Positions 21,265 through 64,000 of a stretch of 64,000 nucleotides of DNA are shown here, piece after piece. The stretch's first letter is position 1, and every line of letters starts with the position of its first letter. The translations under genes and the position numbers were made by a program. A model generated the notes under the pieces. It was not told where the DNA came from. It saw only the letters and a list, made by a program, of their open reading frames with translations, and made no database searches. This stretch comes from Shigella phage ESh24: the sequence record ON528734; one strand, given 5' to 3'.

Positions 21265-21276
21265 AATTATGAATTA

Positions 21277-27136: not shown

Positions 27137-27718
27137 ATGAAAACGTATAAAGAATTTATCGCTGAAGCTTCTGTGGAAAAGGCCAAAGGCATTAATAAAG
27201 ATGAGTGGACCTACCGTTCGGGAAACGGCTTTGACCCTAAAACGGCTCCTATTGAACGGTACTTAGCTACAAAGGCTTCCGACTTTAAAGCCTTCGCTTG
27301 GGAAGGACTTCGTTGGCGTACCGATTTAAATATTGAAGTTGATGGACTTAAATTTGGCCATATTCAGGATGTTGTTGCTAGTAACTTAGACGCAGCTTTT
27401 GTTAAAGCCGACGGTGACCTTCGTCGCTGGAATTTAAAACTGTTCTCTAAACAGAAAGGCCCGGTGTTTGTGCCTAAAGCTGGTAAATGGGTTATTGATA
27501 ATAAATTAGCTAAGGCTGTCAACTACGCTGGTCTTGAATTCGCCAAGCACAAATCATCATGGAGAAGTCTTGATGCAATGGCCTTCCGTAAAGAATTCGC
27601 CGAGGTTATGACTAAAGGCGGCTTTAAGGCAGAACTAGATACCTCTAAAGGTACGTTTAAAGACGCTAATGTTCAGTACGCTTACGCCGTTGCTAATGCA
27701 GCCCGCGGTAATTCTTAA
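27137..27718 (+). CDS. ipIII: internal protein III-like (capsid-targeting sequence MKTYKEFIAE-A)
   Basis: 193 aa (T4 IPIII is 194 aa); CTS; position adjacent to e. Confidence 0.75.
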   Translation: MKTYKEFIAEASVEKAKGINKDEWTYRSGNGFDPKTAPIERYLATKASDFKAFAWEGLRWRTDLNIEVDGLKFGHIQDVVASNLDAAFVKADGDLRRWNLKLFSKQKGPVFVPKAGKWVIDNKLAKAVNYAGLEFAKHKSSWRSLDAMAFRKEFAEVMTKGGFKAELDTSKGTFKDANVQYAYAVANAARGNS

Positions 27719-27734
27719 TAAAGCCGAGTTCGAA

Positions 27735-27800
27735 CCTGGTAATTGATAAATACAGAAACGGGCAATTCATGTGTGTGAATTGCCTCAAACTTAAAGAATA
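27735..27800. repeat. intergenic direct repeat, copy 1 (core AAATACAGAAACGGGCAATTCATG), contains palindrome ggcaattca…tgaattgcc
   Basis: Second copy at 28360-28450; a partial third (aaatacagaaaacgg) at about 23421-23435. Confidence 0.6.
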
Positions 27801-27826
27801 AAACTATTTACATTTAAAGGAAACAC

Positions 27827-28300
27827 ATGAAAACATATCAAGAATTTATTACTGAAGCAGCTATTAATTCTCAAATTATTGCTGAATCTTTTACTGATCT
27901 TTTGAAATTTAAAAAAGGACAGAAAATCACTGCTGTATTGGATGATGGTACAGAAGTTGAGATGGATGTGCAAGGATATAATTATGCAGTAGATGGAAAA
28001 CTGTATAATAAATCTCATGCTAAATTTGATTCATTTGACGACTTTGTTAATACAGTTGAAGATGAAAAAACTCGTCGATCCATTGCAACTGGTGATGCTA
28101 AGGTTCTTATGGCACATGGTCATGAACGCATTCGCGCTAAACAGAATAAAATGGGTGAAGATAATTTTGCATTAGTCGGTTATCAATCTGGTAAACAAAC
28201 CTATGGTTATCAGCGTACTGCTACCATGTATAACAAAAATGGTAAAATTGCCTTTGTAAATAGTAAAGGTTCTATTCAGTACGTTAAATCATTCAAATAA
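27827..28300 (+). CDS. internal-protein-like protein with capsid-targeting sequence (MKTYQEFITE-A)
   Basis: 157 aa; canonical CTS; body unlike the 27137 product and longer than T4 IPII (100 aa). Confidence 0.7.
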   Translation: MKTYQEFITEAAINSQIIAESFTDLLKFKKGQKITAVLDDGTEVEMDVQGYNYAVDGKLYNKSHAKFDSFDDFVNTVEDEKTRRSIATGDAKVLMAHGHERIRAKQNKMGEDNFALVGYQSGKQTYGYQRTATMYNKNGKIAFVNSKGSIQYVKSFK

Positions 28301-28359
28301 GCAAATAAGAAATATGGGAACAAACTGGACCTCATGATTCTGTGAGGGATTCCCGCCAA

Positions 28360-28450
28360 CCTGTAATAAGGTCGAGCCCAAGTGCGGTAATGGGTAAATA
28401 CAGAAATGGACAATTCATGCGCCACGGAATGGCCCAAACTTAGAGAGAAT
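28360..28450. repeat. intergenic direct repeat, copy 2 (core AAATACAGAAATGGACAATTCATG)
   Basis: ~80% identical to 27735-27800; together they bracket the 27827 gene. Confidence 0.6.
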
Positions 28451-28453
28451 AAA

Positions 28454-28996
28454 ATGAGAACATTTTTAACTGGTCCTTATCTATCCCTGATGAATGCTTT
28501 TACACACCATTCTGATGCTAGAGTAGAAGAAATTTGTAAGAATGATTATCTTCCACCAATGGAAGATGTGCTCAAACAGTACTGCACACTTCGTATAGAT
28601 GGTGGACGTCAATCCGGTAAATCAATTGCTGTGACTAACTTTGCTGCTAATTGGCTGTATGATGGCGGAACAGTTATTGTTCTTTCTAATACTTCAGCTT
28701 ACGCTAAAATTTCTGCAAATAACATTAAAAAGGAATTTTCGCGTTATTCTAATGATGATATACGTTTTCGTTTATTTACTGATTCTGTCCGTAGTTTTAT
28801 CGGTAATGAAGGTCATAAATTCCGTGGGTTATCGCTTTCTCGTATCTTGTACATAATTGACGAACCTATTAAAGCTCCTGATATGGATAAGATTTACAAT
28901 ATCCATATTAAAACGGTACAACACTGTTGTCGAAGCTATAATGCTGAAACAGGTGAAACAGTTCGTCCTCAATTTTTTGTGATTGGAATGCAATGA
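28454..28996 (+). CDS. small P-loop NTPase
   Basis: 180 aa from ATG 28454 (RBS gagaataaa); Walker A GGRQSGKS, Walker B ILYIIDEP. Confidence 0.65.
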   Translation: MRTFLTGPYLSLMNAFTHHSDARVEEICKNDYLPPMEDVLKQYCTLRIDGGRQSGKSIAVTNFAANWLYDGGTVIVLSNTSAYAKISANNIKKEFSRYSNDDIRFRLFTDSVRSFIGNEGHKFRGLSLSRILYIIDEPIKAPDMDKIYNIHIKTVQHCCRSYNAETGETVRPQFFVIGMQ

Positions 28997-29322
28997 TGAC
29001 AGACACACAGCTTTTCGAATATCTTTATTTTTCGCCAAAAACTATTAAAAATAAATTGGTGAATCATTTTGAAATTTTGGCAAATAACAACATTTTGAGC
29101 GAATTTTATCCCAAGCAATACAAATTACAAAAAGGCGTATTCAAAGGATGCAGAGTTTTGTGCACGGCTCCTAATGCACGGCTAATGAATAAAATTCCAT
29201 ATTTTACCATGGAATTTATTGATGGGCCTTTTAAAGGACTAATCACGCAGAGTTTAATGGCATATGATTCTGAGCCATTTTTAATTAAAGAACAATCTTG
29301 GATAAATTTATTTTCTAATTGA
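28993..29322 (+). CDS. hypothetical protein
   Basis: 109-aa ORF overlapping the previous stop. Confidence 0.55.
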
Positions 29323-29329
29323 GGTTTAT

Positions 29330-29692
29330 ATGAAAGCATATCAAATTCTTGAAGGCACGCATAAAGGTACTATTTATTTTGAAGATGGTATTCAAGCACG
29401 AATTATTGTCTCTAAAACCTTTAAAGAGGACTCTTTTGTAGACCCAGAAATTTTCTACGGTTTGCATGCCCGTGAAATTGAAATTGAAACACAACCTACA
29501 GTTAAAATTGAAGGTGGTCAACACCTGAACGTTAACGTTCTGCGTCGTGAAACTCTGGAAGATGCAGTTAAGCATCCGGAAAAATATCCGCAGCTGACCA
29601 TCCGTGTATCCGGTTATGCAGTTCGCTTTAACTCTCTGACTCCGGAACAGCAGCGCGACGTTATCGCTCGTACCTTCACCGAGAGTTTGTAA
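29330..29692 (+). CDS. autonomous glycyl-radical cofactor (GrcA/YfiD-like)
   Basis: C-terminal [60 protein letters not shown] matches E. coli YfiD glycyl-radical domain (RVSGYAV); a T4 counterpart (Y06I) is described. Confidence 0.85.
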
Positions 29693-29913
29693 TGGCAAAG
29701 ATAATTATTGAAGGTTCTAAAGATGTGCTAAATGCTTTCGCCGAGTGGTTTAGTAATTCAGGCGAACAGCAATTTAATGAAGCATGGAACATGGGTGATA
29801 TTAATGGAATTTATCCTACGACAGAAATTTCTGTTCAGGGATATGGCATTCATGAACCTATTCGTTTAGTTGAATATGATTTATGCACTGGTGAGGAAGT
29901 CAAATATGATTGA
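29692..29913 (+). CDS. hypothetical protein
   Basis: 73-aa ORF, TAATG overlap with upstream gene. Confidence 0.5.
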   Translation: MAKIIIEGSKDVLNAFAEWFSNSGEQQFNEAWNMGDINGIYPTTEISVQGYGIHEPIRLVEYDLCTGEEVKYD

Positions 29914-30172
29914 AGATATTAAAGGTTATAAGCCACATACCGACGAAAAAATCGGTAAAGTAAATGCTATTAAAGACGCTGAAGTTCGTTTAGGACTTAT
30001 CTTTGATGCTTTATACGATGAATTTTGGGAAGCATTTGATAGCTGTGAAGATGATGAACTTGCGAAGAATTACGCCGAAAGCCTCGATCAGTTAACTATT
30101 GCTAAAACGAAACTCAAAGAAGCCAGTATGTGGGCTTGCCGTGCTGTGTTCCAACCAGAGGAAAAATACTAA
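29906..30172 (+). CDS. hypothetical acidic protein
   Basis: 88 aa from ATG 29906 (RBS gaggaag). Confidence 0.5.
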
Positions 30173-30450
30173 TGGCTCAATTAAGCGCAGGGTTTGGTTA
30201 TGAGTATTATACTGCACCTCGTCGTGTATCTGCCGCTCCTAAGAAAATTCAAAGTCTTGATGACTTCCAAGAAGTAATTCGTAATGCTTTCCAGGACTAT
30301 GCGCGTTATCTTAAAGAAGATTCACAGGACTGTCTCGAAGAAGATGAAATTGCTTACTATGCGCAGCGTCTTGAACAGCTTAAAAACTTACATGAGGTTC
30401 GTGCAGAAGTTTCAAAGTCTATGAATAAATTGATCAGATTTAAAGAATAA
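30172..30450 (+). CDS. hypothetical protein
   Basis: 92 aa from ATG 30172 (RBS ggaaaaatact). Confidence 0.55.
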
Positions 30451-30452
30451 CT

Positions 30453-30482
30453 GTTTACTTTTCCTCTTGACTGTGGTATAAT
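30453..30482 (+). promoter_or_regulatory. early promoter (GTTTAC -35, TGGTATAAT extended -10) for regB
   Basis: Well-spaced -35/-10; the -10 lies in the loop of an 11-bp inverted repeat (30463-30501) whose 3' arm contains the regB SD aagaggag. Confidence 0.6.
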
Positions 30483-30509
30483 TTTTCTATCAGTTAAGAG
30501 GAGAATAAC

Positions 30510-30971
30510 ATGACTATCAACACAGAAGTTTTTATCCGTCGAAATAAGCTCCGTCGTCACTTTGAGTCGGAGTTTCGTCAAATTAACAATGAGATTCGTG
30601 AGGCATCAAAAGCAGCAGGAGTCTCATCGTTTCATCTAAAATATTCTCAACATCTTCTTGATCGTGCAATTCAACGGGAGATTGATGAGACATATGTTTT
30701 TGAATTATTCCATAAAATAAAAGACCATGTTTTAGAAGTTAATGAATTCCTGAGTATGCCTCCGCGTCCTGACATTGACGAGGATTTTATTGATGGGGTT
30801 GAATATCGTCCTGGACGTTTAGAAATCACAGATGGAAATCTTTGGCTTGGATTTACAGTTTGTAAACCTAACGAGAAGTTCAAAGACCCGTCACTTCAAT
30901 GTAGGATGGCAATTATCAACAGTCGTCGTTTACCAGGAAAGGCTTCTAAAGCAGTAATTAAAACTCAATGA
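30510..30971 (+). CDS. regB: sequence-specific endoribonuclease RegB
   Basis: 153 aa as T4 RegB; MTINTEVFIRRNKLRRHFESEF…; synteny near tk/e. Confidence 0.75.
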   Translation: MTINTEVFIRRNKLRRHFESEFRQINNEIREASKAAGVSSFHLKYSQHLLDRAIQREIDETYVFELFHKIKDHVLEVNEFLSMPPRPDIDEDFIDGVEYRPGRLEITDGNLWLGFTVCKPNEKFKDPSLQCRMAIINSRRLPGKASKAVIKTQ

Positions 30972-30978
30972 GGTAAGC

Positions 30979-31524
30979 ATGAGAAAAGCACTACTCGCTG
31001 GTCTATTGGCCATTTCAATGATGGCACATAGCTCCGAGCATACTTTCAGTAATGTCCAACTCGATAACATGCGTTACGCGTATCAATTCGGGGAACAATT
31101 TTCTAAGGATGGAAAATATAAAACACACAAAAATATCCACAAGAGCGGATTAGGTCATATAATGGCTGCTATTTTATGGCAAGAAAGCTCTGGCGGAGTT
31201 AATTTAAAATCTAAACCAAAGCATCACGCCTACGGAATGTTCCAAAATTATTTGCCTACTATGCGAGCAAGAGTTAAGGAACTTGGTTATAATATGACCG
31301 ATGCTGAAATAAAAAGAATGTTGAATAAACGATCCAATTCAGCTTCCTGGGCGTACATTGAACTTTCTTATTGGTTAAATATACATAAGGGCGATATAAG
31401 AAAAGCAATATCCTCTTATAATTCGGGATGGAATGTTAAAGCTGGTTCTAAATATGCTTCTGAAGTCCTAGAAAAGGCTAATTACCTTAAAAATAATAAA
31501 CTTTTGGAAATAGTAAATGACTAA
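30979..31524 (+). CDS. secreted lytic transglycosylase-like (SLT domain) protein
   Basis: N-terminal signal peptide MRKALLAGLLAISMMAHS; SLT catalytic motif ILWQESSGG…AYGMFQ. Confidence 0.6.
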   Translation: MRKALLAGLLAISMMAHSSEHTFSNVQLDNMRYAYQFGEQFSKDGKYKTHKNIHKSGLGHIMAAILWQESSGGVNLKSKPKHHAYGMFQNYLPTMRARVKELGYNMTDAEIKRMLNKRSNSASWAYIELSYWLNIHKGDIRKAISSYNSGWNVKAGSKYASEVLEKANYLKNNKLLEIVND

Positions 31525-47096: not shown

Positions 47097-47570
47097 ATGT
47101 TATTGACTGGCAAATTATACAAAGAAGAAAAACAGAAATTTTATGATGCACAAAATGGTAAATGTTTAATTTGCCAGCGAGAACTAAATCCTGATGTTCA
47201 AGCTAATCATCTTGATCATGACCATGAATTAAATGGACCAAAAGCAGGAAAGGTACGTGGATTGCTTTGTAATCTCTGCAATGCCGCAGAAGGTCAAATG
47301 AAACATAAATTTAATCGTTCTGGCTTAAAGGGGCAAGGTGTTGATTATCTTGAATGGTTAGAAAATTTACTTACTTATTTAAAATCCGATTACACCCAAA
47401 ATAATATTCACCCTAACTTTGTTGGAGATAAATCAAAGGAATTTTCTCGTTTAGGAAAAGATGAAATGATGGCTGAGATGCTTCAAAGAGGATTTGAATA
47501 TAATGAATCTGACACTAAAACACAGTTAATAGCTTCATTTAAGAAGCAGCTTAGAAAGAGTTTAAAATGA
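47097..47570 (+). CDS. 49: endonuclease VII (Holliday junction resolvase)
   Basis: 157 aa; Zn-binding cysteines CLICQ…CNLCN and HLDHDHE motif; same length as T4 gp49. Confidence 0.85.
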   Translation: MLLTGKLYKEEKQKFYDAQNGKCLICQRELNPDVQANHLDHDHELNGPKAGKVRGLLCNLCNAAEGQMKHKFNRSGLKGQGVDYLEWLENLLTYLKSDYTQNNIHPNFVGDKSKEFSRLGKDEMMAEMLQRGFEYNESDTKTQLIASFKKQLRKSLK

Positions 47571-49384
47571 CAATTGAAAAAGAAATTGAAGGATTGATTC
47601 ATAAAACTAATAAAGACCTTTTGAACGAGAATGCTAATAAAGATTCTCGTGTTTTTCCAACTCAACGGGACCTTATGGCTGGTATTGTGTCTAAACACAT
47701 TGCCAAAAATATGGTCCCGTCTTTTATTATGAAAGCGCATGAAAGCGGAATTATTCATTTCCATGATATTGATTATTCCCCTGCTCTTCCATTTACTAAT
47801 TGTTGTTTAGTAGATTTAAAAGGAATGCTTGAAAACGGATTTAAGCTTGGTAATGCACAGATTGAAACTCCTAAATCAATTGGAGTTGCTACTGCAATTA
47901 TGGCACAAATTACTGCGCAAGTTGCTTCTCACCAATACGGCGGAACGACCTTTGCGAATGTAGATAAAGTACTTTCTCCTTATGTTAAACGCACCTATGC
48001 AAAACATATTGAGGATGCAGAAAAATGGCAAATCGCCGATGCGTTGAATTATGCTCAATCTAAAACAGAAAAAGATGTATACGATGCATTCCAAGCTTAT
48101 GAATATGAAGTAAATACTCTCTTTAGTTCAAACGGACAGACTCCTTTTGTAACAATTACATTTGGTACGGGAACTGACTGGACTGAACGAATGATTCAGA
48201 AAGCAATTCTGAAAAATCGTATTAAAGGTCTTGGTCGTGATGGGATAACTCCTATTTTCCCTAAGCTTGTTATGTTCGTCGAAGAAGGTGTTAATCTTTA
48301 TAAAGACGATCCGAACTATGATATTAAGCAACTTGCTCTAGAGTGCGCAAGTAAAAGAATGTATCCTGATATTATTTCAGCTAAGAACAATAAAGCTATC
48401 ACTGGCTCATCTATTCCTGTTTCTCCAATGGGTTGTCGTAGTTTCTTGAGCATATGGAAAGATTCGACTGGTAATGAAATTCTTGATGGACGTAATAATC
48501 TTGGCGTTGTAACACTGAATCTTCCTCGTATCGCATTAGATTCTTATATTGGAACACAGTTCAATGAACAGAAATTTACTGAATTATTCAATGAACGAAT
48601 GGATTTATGTTTTGAAGCTTTGATGCGTAGAATTAGTTCCTTAAAAGGAGTTAAAGCTACTGTTGCTCCTATTCTTTACCAAGAAGGTGCATTCGGGGTT
48701 CGTCTTAAACCTGACGACGACATAATTGAGTTATTTAAAAACGGTAGAAGTTCAGTGTCTTTAGGATACATTGGTATTCACGAATTGAATATTCTTGCCG
48801 GTCGTGATATTGGACGAGAAATTTTAACTAAAATGAATGCTCGTCTTAAACAGTGGACTGAAAGAACTGGATTTGCTTTTAGTTTATATTCGACTCCTGC
48901 TGAAAACCTTTGTTATCGCTTCTGTAAACTTGATACTGAAAAATATGGAAGTGTAAAGGATGTTACCGATAAAGGCTGGTACACTAATAGTTTCCATGTT
49001 TCAGTAGAAGAAAATATTACTCCGTTTGAAAAGATTTCTCGTGAAGCGCCATATCATTTCATTGCGACAGGTGGTCACATTTCTTATGTTGAACTTCCTG
49101 ATATGAAAAATAACTTAAAGGGTCTTGAGGCTGTCTGGGATTATGCTGTGCAGCATTTAGATTATTTTGGTGTTAACATGCCAGTAGATAAGTGTTTTAC
49201 ATGCGGAAGTACCCATGAAATGACTCCTACTGAAAGCGGATTTGTTTGTTCTATTTGTGGAGAAAGTGATCCTAAAAAGATGAACACAATAAGAAGAACA
49301 TGTGGTTATTTGGGAAATCCGAACGAGCGCGGATTTAATCTTGGCAAAAATAAAGAAATCATGCATAGGGTTAAACACCAATGA
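47567..49384 (+). CDS. nrdD: anaerobic ribonucleotide reductase large subunit (class III)
   Basis: 605 aa contiguous ORF; C-terminal Zn-ribbon CFTCGS…CSICG and glycyl-radical tail RRTCGYLGN. Confidence 0.92.
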   Translation: MTIEKEIEGLIHKTNKDLLNENANKDSRVFPTQRDLMAGIVSKHIAKNMVPSFIMKAHESGIIHFHDIDYSPALPFTNCCLVDLKGMLENGFKLGNAQIETPKSIGVATAIMAQITAQVASHQYGGTTFANVDKVLSPYVKRTYAKHIEDAEKWQIADALNYAQSKTEKDVYDAFQAYEYEVNTLFSSNGQTPFVTITFGTGTDWTERMIQKAILKNRIKGLGRDGITPIFPKLVMFVEEGVNLYKDDPNYDIKQLALECASKRMYPDIISAKNNKAITGSSIPVSPMGCRSFLSIWKDSTGNEILDGRNNLGVVTLNLPRIALDSYIGTQFNEQKFTELFNERMDLCFEALMRRISSLKGVKATVAPILYQEGAFGVRLKPDDDIIELFKNGRSSVSLGYIGIHELNILAGRDIGREILTKMNARLKQWTERTGFAFSLYSTPAENLCYRFCKLDTEKYGSVKDVTDKGWYTNSFHVSVEENITPFEKISREAPYHFIATGGHISYVELPDMKNNLKGLEAVWDYAVQHLDYFGVNMPVDKCFTCGSTHEMTPTESGFVCSICGESDPKKMNTIRRTCGYLGNPNERGFNLGKNKEIMHRVKHQ

Positions 49385-49851
49385 ATTATGACAGAATATA
49401 CCCGTGCTGCTTTGTGAATGGCCCTGGATGCAGGACTGTTCTTTTCGTTACAGGTTGTTTGCATAAATGCGAAGGGTGTTATAATAAATCAACATGGAAT
49501 GCTAGAAATGGTATTCCATTCACTGGTGAAACACTAGAGCAATTAATTGAATGTTTGAATAATGATTATATAGAAGGATTAACTATAACTGGAGGAGACC
49601 CTCTCTATCCTGATAATCGAGATGTTATTCATTGCATTGTTCAAACAGTAAAAAATCTTTATCCCAATAAAAGCATTTGGTTGTGGACAGGATATAAATT
49701 TGAAGATATTAAACAACTAGAAATGCTTAAATATGTTGATGTTATTATTGATGGGAAGTATGAGAAAAATCTTCCGACTAAAAAGCTGTGGCGAGGATCA
49801 GATAATCAGCGACTTTGGTCAAATACCGATGGGGTGTGGAAACATGATTAA
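49381..49851 (+). CDS. nrdG: anaerobic RNR activating protein (radical SAM)
   Basis: 156 aa; Cys cluster CLHKCEGC; directly follows nrdD. Confidence 0.85.
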   Translation: MNYDRIYPCCFVNGPGCRTVLFVTGCLHKCEGCYNKSTWNARNGIPFTGETLEQLIECLNNDYIEGLTITGGDPLYPDNRDVIHCIVQTVKNLYPNKSIWLWTGYKFEDIKQLEMLKYVDVIIDGKYEKNLPTKKLWRGSDNQRLWSNTDGVWKHD

Positions 49852-62377: not shown

Positions 62378-64000
62378 ATGAAAGAATTTTATATCTCTAT
62401 CGAAACAGTCGGAAATAACATTGTTGAACGTTATATTGATGAAAACGGAAAGGAACGTACTCGTGAAGTAGAATATCTTCCAACTATGTTTAGGCATTGT
62501 AAGGAAGAGTCAAAGTACAAAGACATCTATGGCAAAAATTGTGCTCCTCAAAAATTTCCATCAATGAAAGATGCTCGAGATTGGATGAAACGAATGGAAG
62601 ACATCGGTCTCGAAGCTCTCGGTATGAACGATTTTAAACTCGCTTATATCAGTGATACATACGGTTCAGAAATTGTTTATGACCGAAAATTTGTTCGTGT
62701 AGCTAACTGTGACATTGAGGTTACTGGCGATAAATTTCCTGACCCAATGAAAGCTGAATATGAAATTGATGCTATTACTCATTACGATTCAATTGATGAT
62801 CGTTTTTATGTTTTCGACCTTTTGAATTCAATGTATGGTTCAGTATCAAAATGGGATGCAAAGTTAGCTGCTAAGCTTGACTGTGAAGGTGGTGATGAAG
62901 TTCCTCAAGAAATTCTTGACCGAGTAATTTATATGCCATTCGATAATGAGCGTGATATGCTCATGGAATATATCAATCTCTGGGAACAGAAACGACCTGC
63001 TATTTTTACTGGTTGGAATATTGAGGGATTTGACGTTCCGTATATCATGAATCGCGTTAAAATGGTTCTCGGTGAACGTAGTATGAAACGCTTCTCTCCA
63101 ATCGGTCGAGTAAAATCTAAACTTATCCAAAATATGTACGGTAGCAAAGAAATTTATTCTATTGATGGCGTATCTGTTCTTGATTATTTAGATTTGTATA
63201 AGAAATTCGCATTTACTAATTTGCCGTCATTCTCTTTGGAATCAGTTGCTCAACATGAAACCAAAAAAGGTAAATTACCATACGATGGTCCTATTAATAA
63301 ACTTCGTGAGACTAATCATCAACGATATATCAGTTATAACATCATTGACGTAGAATCAGTTCAAGCAATTGATAAAATTCGCGGGTTTATCGATCTAGTT
63401 TTAAGTATGTCTTATTACGCTAAAATGCCTTTTTCCGGTGTAATGAGTCCTATTAAAACCTGGGATGCTATTATTTTTAACTCATTGAAAGGTGAACATA
63501 AGGTTATTCCTCAACAAGGTTCGCATGTTAAACAGAGTTTTCCGGGTGCATTTGTGTTTGAACCTAAACCAATTGCTCGTCGATATATTATGAGTTTTGA
63601 CTTGACGTCTCTGTATCCGAGCATTATTCGTCAGGTTAACATTAGTCCTGAGACTATTCGTGGTCAGTTTAAAGTTCATCCAATTCATGAATATATTGCA
63701 GGAACAGCTCCTAAACCGAGTGATGAATATTCTTGTTCTCCGAATGGATGGATGTATGATAAGCATCAAGAAGGTATCATTCCAAAGGAAATCGCTAAAG
63801 TATTTTTCCAGCGTAAAGACTGGAAAAAGAAAATGTTCGCTGAAGAAATGAATGCCGAAGCTATTAAAAAGATTATTATGAAAGGCGCAGGATCTTGTTC
63901 AACTAAACCAGAAGTTGAACGATATGTTAAGTTCAGTGATGATTTCTTAAATGAACTATCGAATTATACTGAATCTGTTCTCAATAGTTTGATTGAAGAG
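62378..64000 (+). CDS. 43: DNA polymerase (family B), N-terminal ~540 aa; 3' end beyond window
   Basis: MKEFYISIETVGNNIVERYIDENGKERTREVEYLPTMF…; exonuclease motif region FDIEV-like (ANCDIEVTG); open to window end. Confidence 0.95.
   Translation, partial: MKEFYISIETVGNNIVERYIDENGKERTREVEYLPTMFRHCKEESKYKDIYGKNCAPQKFPSMKDARDWMKRMEDIGLEALGMNDFKLAYISDTYGSEIVYDRKFVRVANCDIEVTGDKFPDPMKAEYEIDAITHYDSIDDRFYVFDLLNSMYGSVSKWDAKLAAKLDCEGGDEVPQEILDRVIYMPFDNERDMLMEYINLWEQKRPAIFTGWNIEGFDVPYIMNRVKMVLGERSMKRFSPIGRVKSKLIQNMYGSKEIYSIDGVSVLDYLDLYKKFAFTNLPSFSLESVAQHETKKGKLPYDGPINKLRETNHQRYISYNIIDVESVQAIDKIRGFIDLVLSMSYYAKMPFSGVMSPIKTWDAIIFNSLKGEHKVIPQQGSHVKQSFPGAFVFEPKPIARRYIMSFDLTSLYPSIIRQVNISPETIRGQFKVHPIHEYIAGTAPKPSDEYSCSPNGWMYDKHQEGIIPKEIAKVFFQRKDWKKKMFAEEMNAEAIKKIIMKGAGSCSTKPEVERYVKFSDDFLNELSNYTESVLNSLIEE

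Follow-up and report, generated by a model that had tools for sequence, protein, structure and literature searches.

A case for recurrent replacement of the glycyl-radical domain of the T-even phage gene vs.6 by host grcA

The gene vs.6 of Shigella phage ESh24 (sequence record ON528734), analysed here within a window of 64,000 nucleotides (nt), is a T4-type gene for an autonomous glycyl-radical cofactor of the GrcA/YfiD type, and neither the gene nor the function it probably has is new. Its 3′ half is, by its nucleotide sequence, recent host DNA, containing a long exact copy of Escherichia coli grcA inside a gene whose 5′ half is of phage type. We consider it highly probable that vs.6 encodes a GrcA that rescues pyruvate formate-lyase (PFL), and that its structured domain has been replaced by host grcA through recombination or gene conversion, recurrently. 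The comparisons below place this replacement in the E. coli-infecting genera Tequatrovirus and Mosigvirus and, independently, in the Klebsiella-infecting genus Jiaodavirus. The parts of the gene, in positions of the window, are as follows.

29330–29692, + strand: vs.6 (phage grcA) coding sequence, an ATG-to-TAA open reading frame (ORF) of 120 amino acids plus stop; orthologue of T4 vs.6 (Y06I)
29330–29509, + strand: phage-type 5′ half (codons 1–60), AT-rich, homologous to the N-terminal region of GrcA (disordered) but diverged from it
29508–29676, + strand: host-identical tract, a 169-nt exact match to E. coli grcA, coding for nearly the whole structured glycyl-radical domain
29603–29623, + strand: RVSGYAV glycine loop, residues 92–98, with the radical Gly95 at 29612–29614
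29677–29689, + strand: phage-type tail, from the codon alignment; includes the likely vs.5 ribosome-binding region
29690–29694, + strand: TAATG, overlap of the vs.6 stop and the vs.5 start, where host similarity ends (TAAGG in E. coli, then unrelated 3′ sequence)

Every one of 5426 complete E. coli genomes has a grcA that matches positions 29508–29692 at 97.3% identity, and the upstream part of the gene is unmatched. The longest exact match spans 169 nt (29508–29676, corresponding to 1501–1669 of the E. coli locus L001), and a three-way alignment of the window, T4 and E. coli switches abruptly at the 5′ edge of this tract. Aligned nt identity to grcA is 49.7% over the part coding for the N-terminal half (N-part) and 97.2% over the remainder (C-part), a difference that is significant over all positions (Fisher P = 4e-26) and over third positions only (4e-11). 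The 3′ half has five differences, at 29677, 29680, 29683, 29686 and 29687. Each is synonymous, and they are confined to the last five codons, which read TTC ACC GAG AGT TTG in the window and TTT ACT GAA AGC CTG in E. coli. Base composition follows the same division, with G+C rising along the gene from about 0.30–0.34 to 0.51 and third-position G+C (GC3) from 0.20 in the 5′ half to 0.47 in the 3′ half, against 0.24–0.33 in the neighbouring genes and 0.22 in the C-part region of KaAlpha, the closest unconverted relative sampled. Codon choice in the C-part is host-like (CTG, CGT, CCG). Judged against 81 genome-derived grcA genes the donor genus is Escherichia, the next-closest genera being about 90% identical. 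A megablast search of the whole window against the E. coli genomes gave the vs.6 tract as the only chromosomal match, apart from pflB at about 80% nt identity, and pflB was rejected as a donor at that value. An earlier note on this DNA had set nucleotide-level alignment to grcA beforehand as the test of recent host capture; the divergence expected of an old phage gene was not found in the 3′ half, where 169 nt match exactly and, over the interior defined below, 54 of 54 codons are identical to those of E. coli.

For comparison between phages the C-part was divided into an interior, the first 54 codons (29510–29671 of the window), and a tail, the last 6 codons. At 99.4% nt identity to vs.6 of Tequatrovirus vB_EcoM_G4507, the gene places the window phage in Tequatrovirus. 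Phages of this genus and of Mosigvirus carry an E. coli-type tract with 0–4 interior differences, and the tract is found at one and the same in-frame position in more than 600 phage genomes, among them T4, RB69 and phages isolated in many countries. Synonymous divergence (dS) between the two genera is 0.35–0.39 in the N-part and 0.096–0.12 in the C-part (0.39 vs 0.096 for T4 against RB69). T4 itself differs from E. coli grcA at three positions in 183 nt. The 3′ end of the tract is variable between phages: in T4 the sequence is host-like through site 174, and in p000v it is patchy. Searching the phages with the whole E. coli grcA locus revealed no tract reaching into the N-part or beyond the stop. 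Apparently longer tracts beginning at query position 255, in Mosigviruses such as RB69 and in Tequatrovirus RPN187, are low-identity BLAST extensions and were discarded. The match to Citrobacter phage PhiZZ6 (H126) covers the 5′ half, of phage type, and no more. The window and T4 proteins are identical at 118 of 120 residues, with T54 in the window for P54 in T4 and R73 for H73. The second of these is due to codon 73 of T4 vs.6, CAT for CGT (window 29546–29548), the sole non-synonymous change relative to E. coli GrcA in the converted domain; this Arg73 to His change is missing from the window phage and from nine other E. coli phages of the panel.

In Jiaodavirus the corresponding sequence is of a different host type. 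Interiors differ from grcA of the K. pneumoniae complex at 0–8 of 162 nt (Mineola 0/162, JD18 3/162, the IMG/VR contig L202 2/162), versus 12–22 interior differences between the same phages and other Klebsiella species, Raoultella or E. coli, and their tails are phage-type (8 of 18 nt different). The host-type grcA genes that these interiors match are carried by contigs L097–L100, which are collinear at 92–97% over 1.58 kb, through ung, grcA and a DEAD-box helicase gene, with two NCBI assemblies whose GrcA falls in a protein cluster with the NCBI name K. variicola. Four phages, Nispero, KMI13, K65_evo8 and KP182, have identical N-parts (0/180 differences) and interiors that differ at 4–10 of 162 sites (Fisher P 0.05 to 0.0005). 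Of the 19 sites that vary among Jiaodaviruses, nine also vary among hosts of the K. pneumoniae complex (hypergeometric P = 3e-7; 0.004 for third positions only). JD18 and Mineola agree with L100 at sites 39, 45 and 126, whereas L202 agrees with L097 at all three and TNG87 does so at 39 and 45 only; the 120T/132A/135A of KP182 recurs in another host type, L101. The Nispero tract is host-like through site 168, the 3′ endpoint varying here also. Conversion from host to phage appears to have been repeated, since one and the same 5′ half is found joined to different host alleles. The E. coli-type and K. pneumoniae-complex-type tracts, together with the differing alleles on identical N-parts, indicate more than one independent exchange. 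On L202 (IMGVR_UViG_2974754850_000001) the N-terminal half of vs.6 is split by a frameshift at about 301–480, which a sequencing error or a pseudogene could explain.

Identity to the closest host grcA is bimodal over 80 IMG/VR loci, being 98.8–100% in Tequatrovirus, Mosigvirus and Jiaodavirus and 72–88% in every other genuine phage lineage. No other converted lineage was found among RB43 and Miller (Pseudotevenvirus), Klebsiella phage Snake_ER16 (unclassified), Karamvirus, Krischvirus and Morganella MP1, nor was conversion seen in Aeromonas 44RR, BUCT695, the T5-like Epseptimavirus or jumbo-phage contigs, taking the best of 161 host genes. The hosts sampled for the donor search comprise 80 genome loci and 80 metagenome loci, and further donors are possible. 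Several sequences met in these searches are probably not vs.6: the IMG/VR ‘viral’ contig L205 has a host-type, Yersinia-like grcA with the N-terminus MITGIQITKA, and L246–L250 and L253–L256 contain the 3′ end of a pflB-like gene, all probably host flanks or misclassified contigs. L251 yielded no gene that could be parsed. Among the host loci, a typical enterobacterial grcA occurs on the 275-kb ‘plasmid unnamed4’ of Klebsiella sp. WOUb02 (L023), which may be a chromid or a misassembly, and another in an assembly labelled Vagococcus sp. WN89Y (L032), probably by contamination or mislabelling.

Could the host-like half be inherited, without any recent exchange, from a single ancient capture of the whole of grcA, the N half having drifted while codon preference and strong purifying selection kept the C half host-like? 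The C-terminal domain is indeed extremely conserved as a protein in all phage lineages, and in several unconverted lineages GC3 is higher in the C-part than in the N-part (0.45 vs 0.25 in RB43). However, lineages with the same residues share only about 41–60% of their codons with E. coli, as against 100% here: RB43 has 53 of the 54 interior residues and yet shares only 26 codons, and the unconverted non-Klebsiella lineages share 41–58% (P ~1e-12 to 1e-17 compared with 54/54). Because lineages with the same residues use different codons, protein conservation cannot account for the tract. Its identity is moreover specific to the host species, of E. coli type in E. coli phages and of K. pneumoniae-complex type in Jiaodaviruses, and between genera the C-part dS is four-fold below that of the N-part, so that we regard an ancient capture as extremely improbable. 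The abrupt 5′ boundary at 29508, and the lack of any NCBIfam match for the N-terminal 60 residues alone, could instead be taken to mean that a host grcA fragment was joined illegitimately to an unrelated phage ORF supplying a novel N-terminus. Against this, hhalign finds 16 phage N-parts homologous over their full length to 66 bacterial GrcA N-parts (probability 96%, E 3.8e-9, 59 columns), both junctions are in frame and within a homologous gene, and the unconverted RB43, Karamvirus, T5-like and Aeromonas phages already have the N-plus-C arrangement, making such a fusion highly unlikely. Indeed, this architecture recurs in every phage lineage sampled, whether converted or with a phage-type C-part, and between T4 and RB69 the N-part shows a non-synonymous difference (pN) of 0.046 and a synonymous one (pS) of 0.305, a sign of purifying selection. 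Given an N-part homologous to GrcA and under purifying selection, and a shared two-part architecture, these alignments identify vs.6 as an old full-length phage grcA homologue with its structured domain overwritten, and not as a fusion or as a fragment captured by an unrelated gene. The mosaic origin proposed in the earlier note thus stands, with the refinement that the N-terminal half is a diverged GrcA homologue and not foreign.

Transfer in the opposite direction, with E. coli and Klebsiella taking the 3′ halves of grcA from T-even phages, has a precedent in the two-way host–phage exchange reported for cyanophage psbA (PMC1484495). The composition and codons of the tract are nevertheless host-type (CTG, CGT and CCG among them), and the two halves of E. 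coli grcA are equal in GC3 (N-part 0.42, C-part 0.43) and similarly diverged from other genera, with N/C dS of 0.63/0.36 to Citrobacter, 0.81/1.02 to Salmonella and 0.86/0.72 to Klebsiella, values compatible with vertical descent. The match is also annotated as grcA in all 5426 E. coli genomes, adjoining ung in the one locus examined. Host composition of the tract, evenness of both grcA halves in GC3 and divergence, and universal presence in E. coli therefore argue for transfer from host to phage, and we see next to no chance that it ran the other way. We give just as little room to an artefact, whether an assembly chimera, host contamination or a conversion confined to laboratory growth on E. 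coli K-12 or B. Most sequenced phages are grown on laboratory hosts, and the tract is identical to common E. coli alleles; but it occupies the same in-frame position in more than 600 independent phage genomes, it is present on contig L180, which to judge by its IMG/VR identifier comes from a metagenome, and the private substitutions and phage-type tails of the phages speak against fresh contamination.

Several points weigh against a PFL-rescuing GrcA that has been overwritten repeatedly by host grcA. Vs.6 misses the cut-off of 170 for the NCBIfam equivalog TIGR04365 (spare_glycyl), with 154.6 bits compared with 233.9 for E. coli GrcA, because its N-terminal 20–60 residues are divergent. No in vivo benefit to the phage was found in the readable literature. 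The contigs L097–L100 are metagenome contigs, assigned to the K. pneumoniae complex by collinearity only. Tracking of the host is evidently not immediate, as Jiaodaviruses from K. oxytoca, K. aerogenes and Raoultella carry the K. pneumoniae-complex type, and phages named for Yersinia (H21, H60), Pseudomonas (H69) and Salmonella (H71) have 3′ tracts 97.8–99.5% identical to that of the window, which suggests that E. coli is their present or recent natural host, or that their host labels are unreliable. Among variants of the E. coli phages only three, 39C, 102A and 15T, fall on sites polymorphic in the host; these are suggestive, if thinly so, of more than one event, and a single conversion followed by phage-to-phage spread might also account for the tracts of this group. 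Finally, the frequency and mechanism of recombination are inferred from sequence.

We envisage that host grcA overwrites vs.6 when the host's DNA recombines homologously with phage DNA in replication, by a double crossover or by gene conversion, and that conserved coding stretches at the ends of the domain, EQQRDVIAR being one, serve as anchors. T4 recombines efficiently with short homologous sequences in the cell. The stretch replaced extends from the EGGQH codons to about five codons short of the stop. Both edges lie inside the homologous gene, the 5′ edge where similarity between host and phage collapses and the 3′ edge just before the stop that overlaps the vs.5 start; the 5′ limit would then be set by loss of homology in the N-terminal half, and the 3′ limit by the overlap with the start region of vs.5 as well as by homology coming to an end. 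A conversion that ran through the stop would ruin the vs.5 start (TAATG to TAAGG), and we propose that the phage-type tail is retained for this reason. We further propose that a tract already identical to the host is a better recombination substrate, and would therefore be refreshed repeatedly with local host alleles. Whether the 3′ half of vs.6 is in this way a homology-anchored hot spot, into which lytic T-even phages repeatedly copy the grcA allele of their current host, in at least three genera and with two host species complexes, is to our mind an evenly balanced question. If it is, the ~165-nt tract evolves in concert with the host gene and records the recent host species or lineage of the phage, and could be used for host assignment.

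On the minus strand, exactly at the 5′ junction of the tract (29512–29526), lies a terminator-like hairpin (AGGTG-TTGAC-CACCT) followed by a T-rich run. It arises from the conserved GGTGGTCAACACCT coding sequence common to the host, and is probably coincidental. A scan for promoters and terminators over 27500–31000 gave 10 promoter-like sites, with 11.1 expected, and nothing usable. The remaining features of the window that bear on vs.6 are these.

29321–29324, + strand: ribosome-binding site GAGG of vs.6, read from the sequence, 5 nt before the ATG and overlapping the vs.7 TGA stop (29320–29322)
28993–29322, + strand: vs.7, upstream neighbour (ORF, PHROG 2049; same order on the T4 gene map)
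29692–29913, + strand: vs.5, downstream neighbour (ORF, PHROG 1986, T4 gene map), its start overlapping the vs.6 stop
47097–47570: endonuclease VII, present in the window
47567–49384, + strand: nrdD (Pfam matches to NRDD, 1.8e-170, and to Gly_radical), outside the vs.6 system
49381–49851, + strand: nrdG (Fer4_12 plus Radical_SAM), not part of the vs.6 system

The window is oriented in reverse of the T4 record, in which vs.6 (63557–63919) lies between vs.7 and vs.5 and is annotated as autonomous glycyl radical cofactor GrcA, and the order vs.7–vs.6–vs.5 is that of T4 and RB69. The orientation of vs.6 is that of the T4 prereplicative genes.

At the protein level, Pfam PF01228 (Gly_radical) matches residues 60–101 of Vs.6 (E 2.2e-18, 67.2 bits against a cut-off of 22.2) and PHROG 1209 matches it over 1–120 of 121 (E 5.4e-63). 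BLASTP against E. coli GrcA gives 74/100 identities, and residues 61–120 equal GrcA 68–127 at all 60 positions, RVSGYAV included. Of the 51 aligned residues in the N-terminal half, 17 are identical. Among solved structures the best match is YfiD (6owr, E 4.6e-42), the PFL C-terminus also matching (E 4.8e-26, 94 bits), and Gly95 aligns with GrcA G102 (6owr) and PflB G734 (1h16). The earlier note had recognised from the letters alone a GrcA/YfiD glycyl-radical gene at exactly these coordinates, with a C-terminal 60 residues matching YfiD, a divergent N-terminal half, a T4 counterpart, and NrdD and NrdG elsewhere in the phage, and each of these observations is borne out.

Only two PFL spare parts have been validated biochemically, YfiD and T4 Y06I, with the radical installed by the PFL-activating enzyme (PFL-AE) (PMC8683613). 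T4 Y06I was shown to reconstitute PFL cleaved by oxygen when PFL-AE is supplied (Wagner 2001, cited in PMC8683613). Residues 61–127 of YfiD are structured and enter the PFL active site, while its disordered residues 1–60 are needed to bind cleaved PFL and for efficient activation (PMC8683613); the radical passes from GrcA G102 to PflB C419 (PMC12338860). The converted tract corresponds to phage residues 61–115 and YfiD 68–122, nearly the whole structured domain. In infected cells Vs.6 most likely acts as a PFL spare part. The host activase PflA would set the radical on Gly95, and the C-terminal domain would slot into host PFL whose own radical domain is inactive or destroyed by oxygen, handing the radical to PflB Cys419 and maintaining the flux that turns pyruvate into acetyl-CoA and formate. 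T4 shuts off host transcription and gene expression. A phage copy would thus matter because induction of the host's grcA would no longer be possible after infection.

A different partner had been suggested, in that Vs.6 might interact with the phage’s NrdD, serving it as a spare radical domain or as a partner of NrdG instead of serving host PFL. The presence of nrdD and nrdG in the same window fits this idea, as does the speculation of Nolan et al. 2006 (PMC1524935), who noted only a Pfam match for the gene and proposed a role in nucleotide metabolism. A grcA homologue also lies directly 3′ of nrdD in Aeromonas phage BUCT695 (L096, 1–683), an 86-kb non-T4 phage of the Grimontviridae and the sole gene-order hint linking GrcA-like proteins to the anaerobic reductase. 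BLASTP of Vs.6 against the NrdD of the window, including its radical region, nevertheless gave no significant similarity (best E = 9), set against 4.8e-26 for the PflB C-terminus; the domain is identical to that of the host PFL-type GrcA, and it is oxygen-cleaved PFL that T4 Y06I reconstitutes. We found no support for an interaction with NrdD and consider it very unlikely.

Compared with T4 Vs.6 (Y06I), the window gene has the same position between vs.7 and vs.5, the same length of 120 amino acids and the same host-identical tract, but its tail has three more synonymous phage-type codons and the tract ends at a different 3′ point. E. coli GrcA (YfiD) shares the C-terminal 60 residues and, at profile level, the N half; PflA-dependent activation and PflB rescue are presumed to be common to both. 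Vs.6 is 7 residues shorter, ~33% identical in the N half, and part of a phage transcription unit rather than the ung-grcA locus. The C-terminal glycyl-radical domain of PflB (1h16, 2pfl) has the same fold segment and motif, and it is for this part of PflB that the spare part stands in, whereas Vs.6 is a stand-alone protein of 14 kDa. NrdD and Vs.6 both match PF01228, and NrdD with NrdG forms a glycyl-radical system of the same phage; NrdD comes with a radical domain and an activase of its own, and we see no sign that Vs.6 could substitute.

Host–phage intragenic recombination was reportedly described for cyanophage psbA and psbD by Zeidner in 2005. Vs.6 follows the psbA-like pattern of a segment of host identity flanked by phage-type sequence within one gene. 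As in that system, a host-derived metabolic gene of T4-like myoviruses has patchy G+C and segments exchanged between host and phage (Sullivan 2006, PMC1484495). It differs in that the vs.6 tract forms one fixed block, sharply bounded at its 5′ edge and reaching 100% identity to a named host species, in that only host-to-phage transfer is indicated, in that it occurs in the model coliphage lineage, and in that phages otherwise identical carry different alleles.

The gene itself is nothing new; what is added is the evidence for repeated, host-specific conversion of its structured domain, moderately surprising for strictly lytic T-even phages. Such phages break down the DNA of their hosts, to which they have almost no nucleotide similarity. 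Conversion of a lytic phage by its host would be frequent enough in nature to show between near-identical phages. The searchable literature contains no description of the nucleotide-level mosaic of vs.6, but key subscription T4 papers lie outside it and we make no claim of priority. A functional reading is suggested by the identity to the host of the very domain that has to fit its PflB and PflA, the N-terminal half being phage-specific and under purifying selection. This contrast suggests more than chance descent, and raises the question of what the N-terminus of the phage protein does differently from that of YfiD. The vs.6 tract may also serve as a cheap marker of recent host use and as a simple system for measuring recombination between phage and host.

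Elsewhere in the window, the phage tRNA region at 21274–21428 matches tRNA-Tyr and tRNA-Thr genes at 83–91% on E. coli plasmids of ~95–113 kb. These matches occur in 255 of 5426 genomes and are never chromosomal, and the plasmids may be phage-plasmids.

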